Of a stretch of DNA of 64,000 bases, positions 27,105 through 34,896 are shown piece after piece (position 1 is the stretch's first letter; every line of letters begins with the position of its first letter). The notes beneath the pieces were generated by a model, which searched no databases, was not told where the DNA came from, and worked only from the letters and a program-made list of their open reading frames with translations. This stretch comes from Nitrospirota bacterium (GTDB lineage Bacteria > Nitrospirota > UBA9217): assembly GCA_963737155.1 (NCBI GenBank), contig CAVTRN010000002.1, positions 992,001 to 1,056,000 of the forward strand, read 5' to 3'. Both the position numbers and the translations under genes were made by a program.

Positions 27105-27496
27105 GTTGTAGTTCGGGCCACCTGACCGAGAAAAGCCCAATCGAAACTTATAAAGGATGTTACGCCTAATAAAAGACGCGGTTGAACGGTTTATCGTTTT
27201 GTAAGTATAGTCTGCTTTCTTCGCGACGGTAGCTCTTTCTTAGTGGTTACTTTTACTCCTGTGCTGGGGAGTATGTCCGCTAAACGGACCCCGGCTACGC
27301 CCAACAATTTTCCACTCGATACCCGGTTCCGGTATCCGATTGTAGCGGACCGATCCATTCACGCAGGCCTCTACGGCACCTAACGCCAAAAGCTCATCGA
27401 GCTCTTCTTGCACCGTTACGTCCAATATGATGAATGAATAAACCTATAAACGGCAGTTGGGCCTTGCAAATCTGAGTTAACTATTGGATACTATGA

Positions 27497-29445
27497 CCCA
27501 TCTTCTACAGTTGTAGCCGAGAAAAGGGCTATTTGCGTGAGTGAAGTTGTTTGATTTCGCAGAGTTACAAAAAGTTTTTTGGAAAAAGATCAAAATGTAG
27601 TGCCACGTTTATATATAGATTGCTTGCAATTAATAATTATTATGATATATTTATGGTGCTATGTTCTTCCGGGTAAAACGCTCCGAATCGCGAGCATATC
27701 TCCAGATCGTTAATAACCGCCGCGACAAGGGCAAGGTAAAGCAGGAAGTCGTCGCCACGCTTGGACGACTCGATGCGCTCAAGGAAACAGGGGCATTGGA
27801 CAGCCTGCTGCGGTCAGGGCTCAAGTTCTCTGAACAGATCGCTGTTATCGACGCGCATAAGCAGGGCGAAGCAATTGAGACGGATTCCAGGCGTATCGGC
27901 CTTCCGATGATATTCGGCCGGTTATGGAAAGAGCTGGGAATACAGGCGGTGCTTGCGACATTGGCCAAGGAGCGCAAGCATCAATTTTCCATCGAGCGGG
28001 CGATTTATCTTACGGTGCTGCACCGCTTGAGCGTATCGGGTTCAGATCGTGCCGCTGAACAATGGTGCCTTGGCTACAGGATAGAAGGGGCCGACGGAAT
28101 CGATTTACATCATTTATACCGGGCTATGGCATGGCTCGGCGAACCCCTTGCCGATGCTGATCAGCACGGGGCCACCGGATTTTCTCCCCGCTGCACCAAG
28201 GATGTGATTGAGGAAGAGCTGTTCCGACGCAGACGGGATTTATTCACCGATCTACGGCTGGTCTTTTTCGACACCACGAGCATTTACTTTGAAGGAGAAG
28301 GCGGCGAGGATATCGGTGCATATGGCCATTCCAAGGACCACCGGCCCGATCTCAAACAGATGGTGGTCGGTGCAATCATCGATCATCACGGCAAGCCCCT
28401 TTGCTGTGAGTTATGGCCCGGCAACACAACCGATGTCAAGACGCTCGTGCCGATTATAGACCGGCTGAGGCTCCGCTTCGGCATCAATCAGGCGTGTGTA
28501 GTGGCCGACCGAGGGATGATCAGCGAAAAGACTCTGGCCGATTTGCAGGAGCGGAAGATCGATTACATTCTGGGCGCGCGGATGCGGCGGCAAAAGGAAG
28601 TGAGCGAAGAGGTTTTAAGCCGCGGGGGTAAATACGAAGAGGTATACCCCAAAAGCAAGGAGAGTAAGGCCCCTTCCCCGCTCAAGGTGAAGAACGTCAT
28701 GGTAGGCGAGCGCCGCTACATCGTGTGTGTCAATGAGGACCAGCGGAAAGAAGACGCCGCTGATAGAGAAGCCATCATCGCATCCCTTCGAGAGAAGCTG
28801 AAGCAGGGAGGCAAGAGCCTGGTTGGCAACAAAGGGTATCGTAAATATGTGAAGAGCGCAGGCAGTGCTTTTGCCATTGATGAAGAGAAAATTCAACAGG
28901 AATCACGATATGACGGTAAGTGGGTCCTCTCGACCTCGATGCCCATGCTTGCGCGCGAGGTTGCTCTCGCGTACAAGGAGCTGTGGATGGTGGAGCAGAT
29001 CTTCAGGAGCACTAAAACGGTGCTGACGACGCGGCCGATTTATCATAAATGCGATGAGACGATTCGCGGTCACGTCTTCTGCAGCTTTCTTGCGCTTGTT
29101 CTTATGAAGGAATTACAGGAGCGATTGGATAGCCGCAATGAGGAGAAGCTTGAGTGGGGCCAGATGCTCCGAGATCTTGAGGAATTGAAGCAGATCACAA
29201 TTACAAGCGACAACAAGGAAATGATTTTACGGACCGAATTAAAAGGCGATACGGGAAAGGTGTTTCAGGCTGCGGGAGTGGCGATTCCGCCAAAGGTCTT
29301 GATACCGCAGAAGGGAAAGGATGCATGACGCTCATCAGCATGATCGAATTGGAACGAGAGGGGAAAGTGTAGTGCCACGCCACCTTTCGACAGCCGTATC
29401 ATATTGTTTAAGCGAAGTTATTTTTTGGCAGGTGTAGAAGATGGG
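27497..29445 (+). mobile_element. IS1634-family insertion sequence (1949 bp)
   Basis: Perfect 13-bp TIR CCCATCTTCTACA / TGTAGAAGATGGG; TATGA target duplication at 27492-27496 and 29446-29450. Confidence 0.9.
27661..29328 (+). CDS. IS1634-family DDE transposase
   Basis: FFDTTSIYFEG, GHSKDHRPDLKQ, VADRGM, YKELWMVEQIFR..K...RPIYH...IRGHVFCSFLAL. Confidence 0.92.
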   Translation: MFFRVKRSESRAYLQIVNNRRDKGKVKQEVVATLGRLDALKETGALDSLLRSGLKFSEQIAVIDAHKQGEAIETDSRRIGLPMIFGRLWKELGIQAVLATLAKERKHQFSIERAIYLTVLHRLSVSGSDRAAEQWCLGYRIEGADGIDLHHLYRAMAWLGEPLADADQHGATGFSPRCTKDVIEEELFRRRRDLFTDLRLVFFDTTSIYFEGEGGEDIGAYGHSKDHRPDLKQMVVGAIIDHHGKPLCCELWPGNTTDVKTLVPIIDRLRLRFGINQACVVADRGMISEKTLADLQERKIDYILGARMRRQKEVSEEVLSRGGKYEEVYPKSKESKAPSPLKVKNVMVGERRYIVCVNEDQRKEDAADREAIIASLREKLKQGGKSLVGNKGYRKYVKSAGSAFAIDEEKIQQESRYDGKWVLSTSMPMLAREVALAYKELWMVEQIFRSTKTVLTTRPIYHKCDETIRGHVFCSFLALVLMKELQERLDSRNEEKLEWGQMLRDLEELKQITITSDNKEMILRTELKGDTGKVFQAAGVAIPPKVLIPQKGKDA

Positions 29446-29479
29446 TATGATACTTCTTTCAACAAGGAGGTCTCACCCA

Positions 29480-30997
29480 ATGGGTGACTCGATTTCATCT
29501 CCACCTACAGATAAAACAGATAGAATTGCAGTCGATACCTTTGCAGGAAAAGTGCATGTTGAATGGGATTCAACAGCAGCCGTTACACCAATGGGCCAGC
29601 TGGCGTTCTTCATCGATTTTTTGAAGACGGGTGGAATCTACGAACCATGGGTAGCAGACTGTCTACTGCACTACACGAGTCCTAACGCACCCGAGAAGCG
29701 CGATCTTCTCGGTACAGTCCTGTTGTCCGTTCTAGCCGGTCACCATCGTTATTCCCACATGACGAGCGTTCGAAGCGATAATGTCAACCCGGCACTACTC
29801 GGCATGACGAAGGTCGTGAGCGAAGACACCGTACGGCGGGGATTTAAGCAGATGGATGAGCATGCCGGCATCTCATGGCTTACTGAGCACATGAGGCGAT
29901 GTTATGAATCCCTCCTGTGCATGCCATGGATTATGGACGGAGATACGACAGTCAAACCGTTGTACGGAAAACAAGAGGGCGCGGTCATTGGTTACAACCC
30001 GCATAAGCCCGGCAGGCCGTCTCACACCTATCACAGTTACCTGATGGCCAATACCCGGCTTGTTTTGGATGTTGAGGTGCAGGCCGGAAACAAAACAGCA
30101 ACGTGTTACAGCACCCCGGGGTTATGGCAGCTTCTGGAACGACTCCCGCGTCGCTTTTGGCCTGCCTTTTTCCGGGGGGATTCAGGCTGGGGCACGGACG
30201 GCTTCATGAGTCAGGCAGAAGAAAAAGAATTGCCCTATCTCGTGAAGCTACGCCTCACGAAGAACGTGCGGAGGCTTATTGAGAAGGCATTCTATAGTAA
30301 CGATTGGGTAGATGCCGGACAGGGCTGGGAGGGTGTGGAAGAATCCCTTCAACTCATGGGATGGCAGAAATCTCGTCGCGTTATTATCCTTCGACGAGTG
30401 CTCACGGGAGACGTAGCAATAAGCCTGCAGCAGAAGGATCAGATGGAACTTGGGTTTGTGGAAGCGCCCGGAGTTGCCAAGCGATATGAGTATGCAGTAC
30501 TAGCCACCACCCTCAAAGACGAGATTCTCACAATCGCCCAACACTACCGTGATCGTGCGGATGCAGAGAATATTTTTGACGAGTTGAAGAATCAGTGGGG
30601 CTGGGGCGGATATACGACCCGGGACCTTAAGCGCTGCGGCTTCATGGCGCGGACCGTAGCATTAGTTTACAACTGGTGGTCGCTCTTCGTGAGGCTTGCT
30701 CATCCGGACAAACACTTGGAGGCAATTACGAGTCGTCCGCTTCTTCTGCATGCGGTTGGCAAACAAACACGCCATCAAGGGCAGACCATGATGACCATCA
30801 CGAGTGCGCACGCAAGCTCTGGAAAAGTTCAGCGCATTCTCGATGAGATATCCCGCTTTCTAGCAATCCTGAAAACAACTGCGGAGCAGTTGACTCCAGG
30901 TGAACGGTGGCGACGTATCTTGAGCCGTGCATTTTTCAAACTACTGGGTGGAAAACCGTTGCAGGCGCCTGAACTTCTGCCGTTATGGTGTGGATAA
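29480..30997 (+). CDS. IS1380-family DDE transposase
   Basis: MDGDTTVKPLYGKQEGA..GYNP, RGDSGWG, YRDRADAENIFDELKNQWG; AAGGAGG RBS before ATG 29480. Confidence 0.85.
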   Translation: MGDSISSPPTDKTDRIAVDTFAGKVHVEWDSTAAVTPMGQLAFFIDFLKTGGIYEPWVADCLLHYTSPNAPEKRDLLGTVLLSVLAGHHRYSHMTSVRSDNVNPALLGMTKVVSEDTVRRGFKQMDEHAGISWLTEHMRRCYESLLCMPWIMDGDTTVKPLYGKQEGAVIGYNPHKPGRPSHTYHSYLMANTRLVLDVEVQAGNKTATCYSTPGLWQLLERLPRRFWPAFFRGDSGWGTDGFMSQAEEKELPYLVKLRLTKNVRRLIEKAFYSNDWVDAGQGWEGVEESLQLMGWQKSRRVIILRRVLTGDVAISLQQKDQMELGFVEAPGVAKRYEYAVLATTLKDEILTIAQHYRDRADAENIFDELKNQWGWGGYTTRDLKRCGFMARTVALVYNWWSLFVRLAHPDKHLEAITSRPLLLHAVGKQTRHQGQTMMTITSAHASSGKVQRILDEISRFLAILKTTAEQLTPGERWRRILSRAFFKLLGGKPLQAPELLPLWCG

Positions 30998-31030
30998 GTG
31001 GCTCTGATTAAGGGTAGCTGCTCTTTTTAG

Positions 31031-32679
31031 TAACTAAAGAATCAAAAGCTTCTCAAAATGGGTAGAACAATTTGGTGAATATGCATTAAACATGCGCCAG
31101 TTGCGGGATTACAGACATATTTCGGATGGTCAATCCCGCAGCGATAACAGCCTTGCCGAGTTTTGAAACGTAGTACTTGTATGTTTTTCCGACTTTCCGA
31201 ATAATGCCGTGGACGTGAAGCCGTTTCAGAATTCTCGTCATGGTACTGCTCGTCACGGATGGCAGCTGTTTTCGTAGAGATTTATTCTGAAGTCCGTTGA
31301 TGTTGAACTCGCCGCGGGCGAGAACCTCGAACAGTTTGAGATCATCGTCGCTGAAGAGATTGAAGCCCTTGTAGGAACGGTCGCCTGTTTCCACGGTCTT
31401 TGAAATTTTATCAAGGTTATTGATTCCCGCGCTTTGGTCGTCGAACGTGGAGATGAACTCAAGATAACGGCGGTTCGAGGCCTTGAAGATCGCCGTAAGG
31501 TCAAACAGGCTGTAGATGTTCTTCTTCATGGGTGCGTTCTTGTGGACAGGATCTCCGATCCGCGACTGGACTTCCCGATAGTGCTTGAACTCCGAGACGT
31601 CGTTGGTCGTGGTCTCAATCCGGAGGATGCTGCCGAACTTGTCGTACATCTTGATGGATGAAGCGCCCATATGGTGCTTGATCCGTGTTCCCTGAATTCG
31701 GGTGTTGAAGTTGTTGCCCATTTCGCCTTGATAATTGCCGTGGAGCTTCCGACCCAGAAAGGTCGCGATATTCTCCGGTTTCACGGAGTGAATGGCGGTT
31801 CGAACGATTTGCTCATACAACGTGTGCAGGTCCGATTGCTTCTTGAAAACGATGTCGGTGGCATATTCCACCTGCATAGTGCTCCAGTGGTAGGTAAGTC
31901 CGTACCCGTTACCGACCGGGCAGTATTGTTTAGCGAATCTGTCCAGTGCATGGTGTAAGTCCGACACCTTGATGCTGTCAGAAAGCTCCTGGGCTTTGGG
32001 AAAATTATCGATAGAGAGAAACGCGTTCTCCCGAAGAACATAGGGGATTTTCTTTTTTGCCAATTTCGCCGCCAGCCAGTTGTGGCCGTTCATATAGAAC
32101 TGGAGCCGGAACGGTGCCCAGGTGGGAACGCGGAGGTAGCACAGGCCGAACGTCTTGTCGATGAAGTAGAAGTAATAGTGGAGACACTTTCCGGAATCAT
32201 ACTTGAGAAAGGTCTTGCCGGTGTTTTTGTCGTGCCAGGGTTTGTAGCTGGTGCAGGCTTCCATGGCCGAGAAGATATGAACAAGGCCGGGTTGCTCGCC
32301 ACGCGCTTTGATGATTTCTTTGATCCGAGCCTCTTTACGGAACGCACCCAGCTTGCGGATGAACTCGATCTCAATGCTGTTCTCATTCGCGAGGCCCTCA
32401 GCGTTCTCCCGGACTTTTTCCTGAAGCGCTTTGGCGAACTGGGCATAATCGAAAATCTTGATCTGTCGGGCATAGAGGAATGCCGTCATCCCCTTATCGA
32501 AGCACCAGCCGGGCAGCGTGCCCTGCATGATCATGCGGTCATAGCAGGATAGTGAACCGGCTATTTTATCTTGGTAGCGTTCAGGAATCATCATAGCAAC
32601 CTCCATGACTACAATGAGTAGAGCCTTCATTGTATCATGGTTTTTATAAAACCTCTTGGTTCCGGCTTGTCCGGGTTAG
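31031..32679 (-). mobile_element. Unclassified TIR-less IS-like element inserted at TTAG
   Basis: TTAG at both junctions (31027-31030 and 32676-32679); removing it restores the host IS1380 IRR; short hairpins at both ends; single ~502 aa ORF. Confidence 0.75.
31086..32594 (-). CDS. Putative transposase of the TTAG-targeting element, with C-terminal winged HTH
   Basis: ATG 32594 after GGAGG; LSCYDR, CLHYYFY, QVEYATDIVF, IKMYDK...LRIETT, LKRLHVHGIIRKVG.TYKYY; fills the element. Confidence 0.75.
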   Translation of the reverse strand: MMIPERYQDKIAGSLSCYDRMIMQGTLPGWCFDKGMTAFLYARQIKIFDYAQFAKALQEKVRENAEGLANENSIEIEFIRKLGAFRKEARIKEIIKARGEQPGLVHIFSAMEACTSYKPWHDKNTGKTFLKYDSGKCLHYYFYFIDKTFGLCYLRVPTWAPFRLQFYMNGHNWLAAKLAKKKIPYVLRENAFLSIDNFPKAQELSDSIKVSDLHHALDRFAKQYCPVGNGYGLTYHWSTMQVEYATDIVFKKQSDLHTLYEQIVRTAIHSVKPENIATFLGRKLHGNYQGEMGNNFNTRIQGTRIKHHMGASSIKMYDKFGSILRIETTTNDVSEFKHYREVQSRIGDPVHKNAPMKKNIYSLFDLTAIFKASNRRYLEFISTFDDQSAGINNLDKISKTVETGDRSYKGFNLFSDDDLKLFEVLARGEFNINGLQNKSLRKQLPSVTSSTMTRILKRLHVHGIIRKVGKTYKYYVSKLGKAVIAAGLTIRNMSVIPQLAHV

Positions 32680-33402
32680 GATAAATAGTATATGATCTCC
32701 CACTCCGCAGCTCGTTGAGTTCATCATTGGCAGAGAGCAAGCAATGCGGAGGTTCGTCTGGGTACCAATAGAGAGAACGTATCTAAAGATAGCTATATGT
32801 TCAGATGCGTTCTTTACGGTATATGCGATAACCAACATTATGTAAACGATGCTTTACTTAATTCTTTTGACATTGGAGTTTACCCATCAATCACCGCTAA
32901 AATCGAAGGCAAAAAATGATCATCACAGCTGACTGCGAAACACGCCTGTGCCAAATGTATCGGGGAAAATTCTGGTGGCAGCGAGTACACGGGGGGGAAC
33001 AAGGAAACAGATGTGACGATTGACGGGAAACCCGTGAACATTGGTGTATGCGTATATCAAGAAGTCAGAGCAGGCATGTTGATATTCGCGATGTAAGCTT
33101 GAAATCCATACTTTGCGTTGAGTAGCGGATTTCACTAGGTAATCGTTCTGAAACGGTCGGAAGTCAAACCGGAATGCTTTCAGTCCAACATGATTGCCAT
33201 TTATGATATGTACGGATATAATAAGCCATGAAGTACTTGACCAAGATGCAATAGAACAACGTAAGGCTTACGAGTCAGGTATTAGTTGAGATTAAAAGAA
33301 TCGGCGAATATAAAACCTTCAATCCTAACATGATCGATCTTTTTATATCAGCGTGCCGGGTCTTTTTGGAAATGCTTATCAAAGTAGTGTGATGGGGTCT
33401 GG

Positions 33403-34896
33403 ATGCTAGAAGAGAAACATCCCATTCAACAGATGCTGGTGCCACTGTCACTAACTGTGATTGTGTTTTATATTCTGCGCAGATCGACAGTTGCCGACCC
33501 CGACCTTTGGGGTTACATGACCTTCGGGCGGCTTATCTGGGATTATAGAACTTTTCCCTATCAAGATATATTTACCTATTTGCCGACACACGATCGATGG
33601 ATATACCACGAGTGGCTTACGGGCGTGTGTTTGTATCCCATATACAAGTTCACCGGCGGTTTCGGGCTTGTCGTCTTTAGAGATCTGCTCGCTTTCGCTA
33701 CTTTGGGCTTTCTCTATCTCGCAGCTCGCATCCGGAAAAGCAGCAGCGCCAGCGCGCTATTATGGCTCGTGTTAGTTTCTCAATTTTTGAAAATCGGATT
33801 CGGTACAGTGCTTCGGGCACAAACCTTCACGTATTTATTTGTTGCCGTAACGGTATATCTTTTGGAAAGATCGCGCCAGAAAGGACAATGGTTTCTCTTG
33901 TTTATCCTTGTCCCCATCCAGATTGTCTGGTGCAATCTGCATGGGGGCTTCTTGGCAGGCCTTGGCATAATCGCTATTTACACTGTAGGGGAAGCTTTTT
34001 CGCGCCGGACATGGCGGCCGTATCTCCTGGTTTTCCTATTATCGGTTTTGTCGACGCTTATCAACCCGTATGGTGTTGACTATTGGACTTACCTATTCCA
34101 TGCAGTTACCTTGCCTCGCAGAGAGATTACGGAGTGGGCTTCTCTCTTTACCGCTTACGGACAACACAGTATTCCCCTTGTCCAAATCATTTGGTATGCG
34201 TGTTTGGGGATCTTGTCGTTGAGGATACTTGTCAAGGCGCGCTGGCGTGAGATTACCCCCATAATGATCCTGTCCGGAACCTTTCTTTTAGGTATACAAC
34301 ATTGGCGTCACATGGTGTTCTTTCCGATGCTTGCCGCTGTGTATCTCCCTGAACCATTTCAGCCCCATATTGAGGATCTGAAAATGCAATTGTCAAAAGT
34401 CCGGATATGGCTAAAAGAAAAGGTTCCAGTTGCCTTCGTTGGCTCAAGACAAATGACTACTATCTTCATAGCGATCCTAATCTTCCTTATCTGTGTTTTT
34501 ACTGGCTCGTCTTCTTTCTCACTTATGATTCCGACACAGGGAAAAGGACAGATTATGTACTATCCGACCGGTGCGATGGAATATATGAAGAAACACTATT
34601 CATCAGGCAACATCCTGACCATCCTTGAATGGGGGGAATACTTGATCTGGAACCTTGGACCGCGTATGAAGGTTGGGTTGGACGGCCGATATGAAACAGT
34701 CTACCAGGACCATGTGGCAAATGAATACTTTGATTATATCAGCGGCAAGAAAAATGGTTTTCTTGATGCCTATGCTCATGAGTTGGTGTTGTTCAGGCCT
34801 GATACTCCTCCTGTCGCTTCCCTTCAGCATAATCCTGATTGGAACGTTGTCTATAAGGATACGGACAGCATTCTATTTACAAGAGTTAGACGCTGA
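33403..34896 (+). CDS. Polytopic membrane protein, possible GT-C-fold glycosyltransferase
   Basis: First-loop DPDLW...GR, HEWL, W.NLHGGF, NPYG, EW, periplasmic C-terminal WGEYL...DGRYE; many TM segments. Confidence 0.6.
   Translation: MLEEKHPIQQMLVPLSLTVIVFYILRRSTVADPDLWGYMTFGRLIWDYRTFPYQDIFTYLPTHDRWIYHEWLTGVCLYPIYKFTGGFGLVVFRDLLAFATLGFLYLAARIRKSSSASALLWLVLVSQFLKIGFGTVLRAQTFTYLFVAVTVYLLERSRQKGQWFLLFILVPIQIVWCNLHGGFLAGLGIIAIYTVGEAFSRRTWRPYLLVFLLSVLSTLINPYGVDYWTYLFHAVTLPRREITEWASLFTAYGQHSIPLVQIIWYACLGILSLRILVKARWREITPIMILSGTFLLGIQHWRHMVFFPMLAAVYLPEPFQPHIEDLKMQLSKVRIWLKEKVPVAFVGSRQMTTIFIAILIFLICVFTGSSSFSLMIPTQGKGQIMYYPTGAMEYMKKHYSSGNILTILEWGEYLIWNLGPRMKVGLDGRYETVYQDHVANEYFDYISGKKNGFLDAYAHELVLFRPDTPPVASLQHNPDWNVVYKDTDSILFTRVRR

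Follow-up and report, generated by a model that had tools for sequence, protein, structure and literature searches.

What moves a stretch of DNA whose only gene encodes a protein that no transposase family recognizes? This question is raised by a 1649-bp unit in a 64,000-nt stretch of contig CAVTRN010000002.1 from a Nitrospirota bacterium (the window, to which all coordinates refer; L-numbers designate loci of relatives). An earlier note on this DNA had proposed an unclassified mobile element, with a transposase resembling Rep_trans-type rolling-circle initiators. Our analysis indicates that the unit is almost certainly an autonomous insertion sequence (IS). We lean towards the view that it represents an IS family not classified in Pfam, NCBIfam or PADLOC, whose transposase is a Rep_trans-like tyrosine nuclease. 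The earlier interpretation is supported in this respect; its single-strand or rolling-circle mechanism is, now as then, something that we infer.

Mobility, ends and target site of the element

Comparison of the element with its relatives shows that the family is mobile, as near-identical members occur in several copies per genome and in different flanks. We found 8 copies in Lachnospiraceae bacterium M18-1, 6 in Dorea sp. 5-2, 7 in a metagenome-assembled genome (MAG) of Acidobacteriaceae and 4 in a deltaproteobacterial MAG. Copies within a genome are 99.8-100% identical over 1648-1738 bp, their similarity ends abruptly and their flanks are unrelated. The earlier note had based mobility on a host inverted repeat that the unit splits. 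That argument failed: after the unit was removed in silico, no inverted repeat of at least 9 nt spans the junction, and an imperfect 6-of-8 match can be seen by eye. The multi-copy relatives support mobility in its place.

In the window, the plus strand reads TTTAGTAAC from position 31026 and CCGGGTTAGG from 32671. TTAG occurs at 31027-31030 and 32676-32679 with a spacing of 1649 bp. Of 58 inverted pairs in 31000-32710, the 25 longest include none that connects the termini, in agreement with the previously described unit between TTAGs that lacks terminal inverted repeats. The element is present once in the window, has a G+C content of 0.497 (window, 0.499) and has no match in Rfam. A single long open reading frame (ORF) lies between its ends, on the minus strand at 31086..32630 (514 aa). 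We take the transposase gene to be the 502-aa form, whose ATG at 32594 lies behind GGAGG and whose length agrees with that of the homologues (500-512 aa). In this form the gene reads as intact, and it is the sole gene of the element.

Copies with boundaries set by BLAST begin, in gene orientation, as flank|CCTAACCCGG-N5-CCGGAA and end as (A/C)CTAA|flank. CCT precedes AACCCGG in all 27 such copies, and the base before it is variable. The left motif CCTAACCCGG-N3-8-CCGG was found in 63 of 81 sequences (80 loci and the window). Among the 18 that lack it, L001 and L012 begin inside the gene, and L003 (2916-2930) is a degenerate copy that reads TCC|AACCCGG instead of CCT|AACCCGG and has an internal deletion (query 476-787 absent). 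A plasmid copy outside the 81, L082, reads CCT|AAGCCGG. In the lineage of the window, the right end ...TTAGTTACT|AA is common to L001 and L003, and the left end to L008 and L011, in each case with different flanks. Independent copies of the same lineage lose similarity exactly at the boundaries of the element, which are thus beyond chance. A census of ends recognized both of them in 56 elements, giving 53 distinct flank pairs, and missed the right end in seven (L008, L011, L029, L034, L041, L045 and L071). Because the census patterns demanded CCTAACCCGG and xCTNA, the claim about boundaries rests on the BLAST-defined sets.

Some positions at the junctions do not depend on these patterns. Of 49 right junctions, 43 have A, three have T and three have C directly behind CT, unlike the left junction, which reads AA throughout. 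At flank position -4, 47 insertions have C (20), T (17), A (9) or G (1), and at position -5, T or A occurs in 39 of the 47. Six Acidobacterial-type insertions have CCT|AA on the left and ACT|TA or ACT|CA on the right, in copies that are otherwise ~99.9% identical. These mismatched insertions imply that the left AA belongs to the element and the right NA to the target. Only CT is then common to donor and target, so the break is at one of three bonds in or beside CT. On these alignments, TTAG/CTAA is not a target duplication, and a CT core within a CCT|NA site describes it better. The earlier note had suggested testing homologues for TTAG/CTAA specificity; conserved ends and the CT site were found in them, a duplicated tetranucleotide was not.

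Among the loci examined, one empty site was found: the joined flanks of L032 align gaplessly to a paralogue within that locus (73% identity over 268 nt). L017 provides a second natural "empty site", as the element interrupts one arm of a palindrome whose other arm is intact (...GCTC-CCTCA-CGGTCGCGGCTC); one uninterrupted copy of this Acidobacterial target palindrome was found. The independent Acidobacterial insertions L017, L027, L030 and L033 all have REP-like CGGTC(G/A)CGG(C/T)TC next to them in the right flank; it forms hairpins or palindromes and may be a preferred local target. Palindromes adjoin only some of the Acidobacterial sites, and elsewhere there is no hairpin preference. In L029, compared with its sister L030 in the same Acidobacteriaceae MAG, the last 9 nt GTAGGTACT are absent and the element ends at ...ACCTAACTAT, either by terminal deletion or by use of an internal CCTAA-like site.

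The two ends of the element differ from each other. An alignment of 17 diverse elements gives the left-end consensus AACCCGG-N5-CCGGAACCAA(A/T)AGG, in which RNAalifold pairs only the 4-bp CCGG/CCGG stem; covariation is absent because both arms are invariant. In the right-end consensus, three motifs stand at fixed distances: a box (-41 to -32), TAAG or TAGG (about -11 to -8) and a terminal (A/C)CT. The non-coding ends are short (47-158 and 40-125 nt). Asymmetric hairpins had been claimed for both ends of the window unit. The hairpin CCGG-CTTGT-CCGG at 32662-32674 has a counterpart in relatives. The other, TTTAGT-A-ACTAAA, includes an outer A that belongs to the flank. Its 5-bp version recurs in the three Nitrospirota-clade copies with right ends read (window, L001 and L003), and it is particular to the window clade, given that the right ends of the 17 elements have no consensus hairpin.

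Within their ORFs, the elements avoid their own target site. We compared 26,529 nt of ORF from the 17 elements with 200 synonymous-codon shuffles; the elements are related, so the counts are not independent. CCTAA was observed once (4.4 expected; 9 of 200 shuffles were as low), TTAGG once (8.9 expected; 0 of 200), CTAA 18 times (34.0 expected; 1 of 200) and TTAG 13 times (46.4 expected; 0 of 200). CCTAA and TTAGG occur at 0.51 and 0.34 per kb in the flanks, and at 0.04 per kb each in the ORFs.

At the right end of L031 (4555-4630), an 8-nt unit (AAGTACCT in one reading) is repeated perfectly 9.5 times in tandem, and each unit is bounded on both sides by the putative cut site CT|AA. Replication slippage could have produced these repeats, or they could be the footprint of repeated cleavage and joining. 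By analogy with the Rep* adduct of pT181, the nine perfect units could reflect oligonucleotide adducts.

The transposase and its resemblance to Rep_trans proteins

Sequence searches assign only the C-terminus of the protein. Over the first ~430 residues, no family in Pfam, NCBIfam, PHROGs or PADLOC matches the window protein or 64 diverse members, and neither it nor the members match DDE, DEDD, serine, tyrosine or HUH families. Pfam gives weak matches to winged-helix families only (HVO_A0261_N, HxlR and MarR; residues ~440-497). A PDB profile match to a MarR protein has an E-value of 0.011, and beyond MarR-type winged helices nothing was found by sequence. The named clusters of the ESM Atlas returned only 'hypothetical protein' clusters, and none of the models in the NCBI protein-family library (June 2026 release) represents the family. 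These results agree with the earlier description of a 502-aa ORF with a C-terminal winged helix-turn-helix and no recognizable recombinase motif. No RNase H-fold IS family was matched in Pfam, in NCBIfam or among the Foldseek matches listed.

An AlphaFold2 model based on the 64-sequence alignment has a pLDDT of 95.0 and a pTM of 0.86. When this model was compared with the PDB using Foldseek, ranks 1-4 were chains of 4CIJ (RepSTK1; E-values 9e-5 to 2e-4, probability 0.99-1.00), 4CWE was at rank 9 and 4CWC (RepDE) at rank 15; several TATA-binding proteins (TBPs) were also matched. With a model of a second, 29% identical member (P0269; pLDDT 94.3), 4CIJ and 4CWE occupy ranks 2-6 (E-values 6e-3 to 1e-2, probability 0.77-0.97). 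No recognized transposase is among the Foldseek matches listed for either model. At E<=1e-3, the BFVD viral library yields 25 matches to the window model, among which are TBP-fold proteins and Rep proteins of Inoviridae. They include A0A345MNV4 and A0A2N9QVX7; the former is named as a PF02486 protein, and both are reported neighbours of the Rep-Arvir proteins (PMC13107129). The Rep_trans resemblance proposed in the earlier note is thus supported by the structural ranking, but profile tests are negative and TM-scores low (see below).

The conserved residues point in the same direction. Fifteen columns are invariant in all 64 sequences (D19, R20, G103, E112, Y141, Y143, G150, P161, N169, N190, E243, F250, Y317, R325 and E327), and D247, K315 and K319 are each conserved in 63. 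In the model, D19 lies on the first strand (11-26), which is followed by four strands at 103-169 and by a strand with E243 and D247 (236-250). Four further strands come later, with K315-x-Y317-x-K319 on 312-319 and R325-x-E327 on 323-330. The equivalent of Y317 in the P0269 model, Y326, is likewise on a strand (321-328). In HUH enzymes, the catalytic tyrosine is on a helix.

In Rep_trans proteins, the first strand is described as central, with strands 2-5, then strand 6 and then strands 8-11 coming after it. Strand 10 carries the catalytic tyrosine, Y191 (Y179 in RepSTK1), between R189 and K193, and the metal ligands D46, D142 and E214 are each on a strand of their own (PMC4797284). The published motifs are N' (D), I (RxD), II (T/SxY/ExG), III (YxKxxE) and IV (W/LxRxE) (PMC5714925). 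By inspection of the invariant columns, motif N' of RepC, LSFDAM, has LSCYDRM (D19) as its putative counterpart in the window protein. For motif I, RLDLAFDF (R-x-D142-x-A-x-D) corresponds to QVEYATDI (Q-x-E243-x-A-x-D247); for motif III, IRIYNK corresponds to IKMYDK, which lacks the trailing E; and for motif IV, LWRVE (L-x-R212-x-E214) corresponds to ILRIE (V-x-R325-x-E327). K315-x-Y317-x-K319 also parallels R189-x-Y191-x-K193 of RepDE. The segments QVEYATDIVF and IKMYDK...LRIETT, which the earlier note had singled out, both fall on columns invariant in the 64 homologues and would correspond to motifs I, III and IV. On the model, the invariant residues appear to parallel motifs N', I, III and IV, and the strand order seems to match the published topology. 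We consider it probable that the protein belongs to the Rep_trans/TBP-fold nuclease superfamily. An internal duplication of two half-sheets was considered and rejected (hhalign probability 0.15).

The closest known systems are the Rep_trans (PF02486) initiators and MOBT relaxases, including RepC and RepD of the pT181 family, RepSTK1, CTXphi RstA, Tn916 Orf20 and ICEBs1 NicK. Features that appear to be shared are the fold, as suggested by the best structural matches, a tyrosine in basic-x-Y-x-K on a beta-strand, the R-x-E motif, acidic residues on the first, middle and post-tyrosine strands, and a DNA-binding domain that follows the catalytic domain. By contrast, the catalytic region of the window protein is longer (~360 versus ~230 residues), has no sequence-profile match and carries the additional invariant residues E112, Y141 and Y143 on its first half-sheet. 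Moreover, the window unit is a chromosomal, multi-copy, single-gene unit and not a plasmid, phage or integrative and conjugative element. The roles listed for Rep_trans proteins in the cited parts of three papers are plasmid and phage replication and conjugative relaxases, and transposition is not listed there (PMC5714925, PMC4797284, PMC13107129).

A further parallel is Rep-Arvir (DUF7845) of archaeal viruses and plasmids. These proteins are reported to have a TBP-fold Rep_trans-like domain followed by a MarR-like winged helix, their kinship with Rep_trans is visible by structure only, and their Foldseek neighbours in viruses overlap with those of the window protein (PMC13107129). Rep-Arvir is archaeal and serves the replication of viruses and plasmids (PMC13107129), whereas the window family is bacterial and behaves as an insertion sequence. 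Unlike the DUF7845 proteins, the window family matches no Pfam family beyond the winged-helix ones.

Proposed mechanism and competing explanations

In the mechanism we propose, the transposase would combine the TBP-like crescent fold of Rep_trans initiators with a winged helix. Probably as a dimer, in the manner of RepC, it would bind the palindrome at the left end and the box at the right end. Tyr317 would nick one strand with the help of a metal held by D19, E243/D247 and E327, at CT|AA on the left (flank-CCT|AACCCGG) and at the corresponding site on the right (...ACT|NA-flank). Each nick would leave a 5′-phosphotyrosine link and a 3′-OH. The excised strand could be joined directly, with resealing of the donor, or be displaced by replication primed from the 3′-OH of the flank. 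The product would be a single-stranded circle with the junction ACT-AACCCGG, similar to a pT181-type origin. In the reverse reaction, the circle would be pasted into CCT|NA, resulting in neither duplication nor inverted repeats. Our data show mobility, the ends, the site, the lack of a duplication, the resemblance in fold and the invariant residues; nicking, the choice of strand, the circle, replication and the dimer are inferred. We find a single-strand nick-and-paste model of this kind the most economical. It would account for ends that differ from each other and lack inverted repeats, for insertion without duplication, for the shared CT core and for the large number of copies. We give transposition through a single-strand or rolling-circle intermediate about an even chance.

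The proposed junction has a counterpart in the pT181 family, whose origin is reported to be nicked at 5′-AAAACCGGCTACTCT/AATAGCCGGTT, in shorter form ...TACTCT/AATAGCCGG (bioRxiv 10.1101/2020.09.30.320143). We located the nick sequence in pT181 (L081, 4355-4380). The junction of the element would read ...TTACT|AACCCGG-N5-CCGG, such that both break CT/AA beside CCGG; this parallel is suggestive only. Taken further, the left end would act as 'ori' and the right end as 'ter', and the excised circle would re-form a pT181-like origin (ACT|AA-CCCGG palindrome). Whether the family constitutes a new catalytic class beside DDE, DEDD, HUH, serine, tyrosine-recombinase and Cas1 enzymes, with the element as a rolling-circle origin split by integration, is in our judgement evenly balanced. 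On the first half of a pseudo-symmetric sheet, Y141/Y143 and E112 may provide each monomer with a second nucleophile site. If so, the protein would be a Rep_trans analogue of the Y2 transposases.

Established transposons share some of these properties. Like the IS200/IS605 elements, the family has neither terminal inverted repeats nor target duplication, a short specific site abuts one end, a palindrome lies beside the left cleavage site, and the proposed chemistry involves a 5′-phosphotyrosine. It differs from them in that its protein lacks an HUH/Y1 domain (Y1_Tnp; Pfam/NCBIfam) and is about three times larger, and in that no conserved right-end hairpin or orientation bias was detected. In lagging-strand-targeting IS608-type elements, an orientation bias is expected. 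In IS91/ISCR elements and Helitrons, too, the ends are distinct ('ori' and 'ter'), inverted repeats and a duplication are lacking, and the site is of the tetranucleotide type (PMC5714925). The three invariant tyrosines of the window family might supply two nucleophiles, in analogy to the Y2 arrangement of IS91 and Helitrons. However, the nuclease fold is unrelated, and the window family has no Y2_Tnp match and, on the weak evidence that no longer homologues were found, no helicase fusion; in contrast to IS91/ISCR, its lengths are uniform (1615-1735 bp), with no sign of read-through capture. The IS110/IS1111 elements share the lack of inverted repeats and duplication, as well as a CT core common to donor and target, CT being the core of IS110. 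Unlike IS110, the window element has no DEDD_Tnp_IS110 or Transposase_20 match, and its non-coding ends are short and without an Rfam match.

Several observations weigh against a Rep_trans-like transposase that acts on single strands. The Foldseek alignments of the window model have TM-scores of 0.19-0.20 by query length and 0.32-0.33 by target length, with a root mean square deviation of ~13 Å, and over both models the TM-scores range from 0.16 to 0.35. The P0269 model has no match at E<=1e-3, and its rank 1 is HMG-CoA reductase (E-value 3e-3). PF02486 is matched at E<=1 by none of the 64 members and not by the window protein. The hhalign comparison with a RepC alignment gave a probability of 0.09, in a test weakened by the shallowness of that alignment, which comprises 12 sequences with identities of at least 81%. 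When only the catalytic segments were compared, IKMYDK to IRIYNK was the best local match, with a probability of 2.3. No alignment program reproduced the motif correspondences with significance; the residues were matched by order, spacing and secondary structure only. Motif II is reduced to G302, and where Rep_trans proteins have a helix between the tyrosine and glutamate strands, the window protein has a tight hairpin. As for the DNA, the end census is partly circular through its search patterns, and RNAalifold found no consensus hairpin on either strand of the 17 right ends. The 36-nt right flanks of 42 sites fold no more stably than controls (mean folding energy -2.40 versus -2.26; p=0.95). 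Orientation is not biased with respect to the GC skew of the flanks (positive for 20 of 44 insertions, negative for 24; Wilcoxon p=0.46), GC skew being a crude proxy for replication direction on these contigs. Finally, neither a circle junction nor a tandem copy was seen among the loci.

The junctions fit equally well with a different reaction, in which a double-stranded circle is exchanged conservatively with the target over a 2-bp CT overlap and all four strands are cut by tyrosines, following the logic of IS607 and IS110. Such an exchange predicts a crossover dinucleotide, and donor and target do share exactly CT where the flanking bases differ. The lack of an orientation bias relative to GC skew is expected for double-stranded targets, and the element's own site is avoided on both of its strands. 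However, published accounts have Rep_trans enzymes nick a single strand and remain attached to its 5′ end (PMC4797284, PMC5714925), the non-palindromic CCTAA would demand separate recognition of the bottom strand, and we found no precedent in the literature searched. We regard this exchange as unlikely. That the unit is instead a minimal integrating rolling-circle replicon (a Rep-only mini-plasmid or satellite), maintained as an episome from ACT|AACCCGG and leaving chromosomal copies as a side product, strikes us as improbable. It would suit the pT181-like junction, with its CT/AA nick by CCGG followed by a palindrome, and a TBP-fold nuclease with a winged helix is the architecture of the Rep-Arvir initiators (PMC13107129). 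It would also suit L052 (Petralouisia muris), a 1651-bp contig that corresponds to exactly one element and whose title gives ~1619-fold k-mer coverage, which implies many copies or an episomal form. Yet the short contigs run from CCTAACCCGG to CCTAA without the long terminal overlap of circular assemblies, all informative copies are chromosomal or on a large plasmid with distinct flanks, and there is neither a single-strand origin nor a second gene.

The remaining alternatives deny the protein its proposed role or its proposed fold. It is very improbable that it is merely a DNA-binding regulator or accessory protein, within a unit that another enzyme moves in trans or that is a repeated host gene. 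Winged-helix regulators are indeed its only family matches and the source of its public names. However, the winged helix accounts for ~60 residues of the 502, and some 430 others make up a conserved domain in which Asp, Glu, Tyr and Arg residues are invariant. The copies are nearly identical, and their boundaries are sharp to the base. Since the same single-gene unit with the same ends occurs across many phyla, it is implausible that all of them share a partner acting in trans. Alternatively, profiles may have missed a known type of transposase, such as a highly diverged DDE (RNase H-fold) enzyme. We found nothing positive for this; it is considered only because remote DDE families can escape hidden Markov models. 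No Pfam or NCBIfam transposase model matches at E<=1, while the same searches recognized the transposases of the two neighbouring insertion sequences, which are IS1634- and IS1380-like. Unlike DDE insertion sequences, the element has no terminal inverted repeats and no target duplication, and no recognized transposase is among the Foldseek matches listed. We rate this possibility as extremely unlikely. The Rep_trans-like transposase remains the reading that we favour.

Distribution, significance and surroundings of the element

The family is very large and spans many phyla. In a search of 90%-identity clusters, 8000 of 8000 scored candidates matched at E<=0.001. Identity among the best 120 is 64-96%, with 93-99% of the query covered; not one of the 120 has a precomputed Pfam domain, and many are on contigs of 1.6-2.5 kb. 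Many homologues occupy contigs that, at ~1.65 kb, are as long as the element itself. Among representatives of 50%-identity clusters, 7065 match at E<=1e-3 (a tier that may contain winged-helix-only matches), 3603 at E<=1e-10 and 771 at E<=1e-30. In species-representative genomes, tblastn confirmed 290 of 324 candidate stretches, and the best 80 of the 290 were analysed further. According to record titles, the hosts include Nitrospirota, Bacillota, Acidobacteriota, Desulfobacterota, Planctomycetota, Gemmatimonadota, Armatimonadota, Dehalococcoidia, Cloacimonadota and Pseudomonadota. A copy on a Paraburkholderia plasmid is 48% identical. No homologue was found in phage genomes. All 56 elements with both ends recognized retain an ORF of at least 480 codons.

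The elements of M18-1 (L046) and Dorea sp. 5-2 (L051) are identical at 1629 of 1643 positions, which indicates horizontal transfer and points to recent spread among gut Lachnospiraceae. L060, from an Acetatifactor MAG, has a right flank in common with L049, with a one-base offset. A distant member (L083; 20% identity) occurs at four places in the record of a Mycobacterium riyadhense plasmid and has a CCGGG-N6-CCCGG palindrome at 2395-2420, ~70 nt upstream of the ORF. Judging from this copy, the end palindrome may be a feature of a wider superfamily.

Transposons are classified by the chemistry of their transposases, and the list of chemistries is short. In title listings of literature searches, we found no paper on Rep_trans or TBP-fold transposition or on such an element. 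A Rep_trans-like transposase, if correct, would be a second, independent case of a replication initiator recruited to transposition. Since no Pfam or NCBIfam model exists and public annotation calls the proteins MarR or ArsR regulators, genome annotation, IS censuses and regulon predictions miss or misread the family; the earlier note had anticipated this mislabelling. The hosts include Lachnospiraceae of the mouse and human gut, and assemblies fragment at the element, giving contigs of ~1.65 kb. Its compact size of 1.65 kb, its 5-nt site and its scar-free junctions would also make it of interest to tool builders.

The features of the element and its neighbours are listed in Table 1. The TGCTACAAT part of the possible extended -10 is retained in L008 and L011. 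A scan for two-hexamer consensus promoters found none on the strand of the transposase gene. A promoter at the junction was rejected, as the consensus scan gave 1 match, on the wrong strand, versus 2.0 expected; a TTGCCA/TATAAG pair considered for it has spacers of 17-19 nt and no conservation in the window clade.

Table 1. Positions of the element, its parts and neighbouring transposase genes in the window
Feature	Position	Strand	Remarks
Whole element, 1649 bp	31029..32677	minus	Gene orientation, AACCCGG... to ...GTTACT
Transposase gene (502 aa), stop included	31086..32594	minus	Rep_trans-like catalytic region at ~1-360 (predicted), helical linker, winged helix, C-terminal helix
Left flank CCT	32678..32680	minus	Target half-site 5′ of putative cut; CCT kept in BLAST-bounded copies
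Right flank AA (NA in relatives)	31027..31028	minus	Target half-site 3′ of putative cut
Conserved left end AACCCGG-ACAAG-CCGGAACCAAGAGG	32652..32677	minus	Contains CCGG-N5-CCGG palindrome
Right end, 57 nt past stop	31029..31085	minus	Box, subterminal TTAG, terminal ACT
Right-end conserved box	31060-31069	minus	TGTTCTACCC in window, TTTCTGCCA in other clades
Right-end subterminal TTAG	31034-31037	minus	TAAG elsewhere
Possible extended -10 TGATACAAT of transposase gene	32629..32637	minus	Putative; read from the sequence
Tyr317 codon	31644..31646	minus	Proposed nucleophile in K315-x-Y317-x-K319; conservation and model strand 312-319
Winged helix-turn-helix, residues ~416-476	31167..31349	minus	Weak Pfam and PDB profile matches, model secondary structure
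IS1634-family transposase ORF	27661..29328		NF033559, E-value 1.2e-114
IS1380-like DDE transposase	29441..30997		Directly upstream; 130.6 bits, under NCBIfam cut-off of 180

The surroundings are chromosomal and rich in insertion sequences, with tig-clpP-clpX at 38.9-42.1 kb. Three insertion sequences follow in a row between 27.5 and 32.7 kb. The IS1634-family ORF is enclosed by a perfect 13-bp inverted repeat (CCCATCTTCTACA at 27496-27508, inverse at 29433-29445), which gives this insertion sequence a size of ~1950 bp. The start of the IS1380-like ORF falls within the IS1634 repeat, so this ORF is probably truncated at its 5′ end; no inverted repeat was found for it. Past the left end of the element, a 497-aa ORF at 33403-34896 has no Pfam match at E<=1e-5, and its translation looks like a multi-pass membrane protein.

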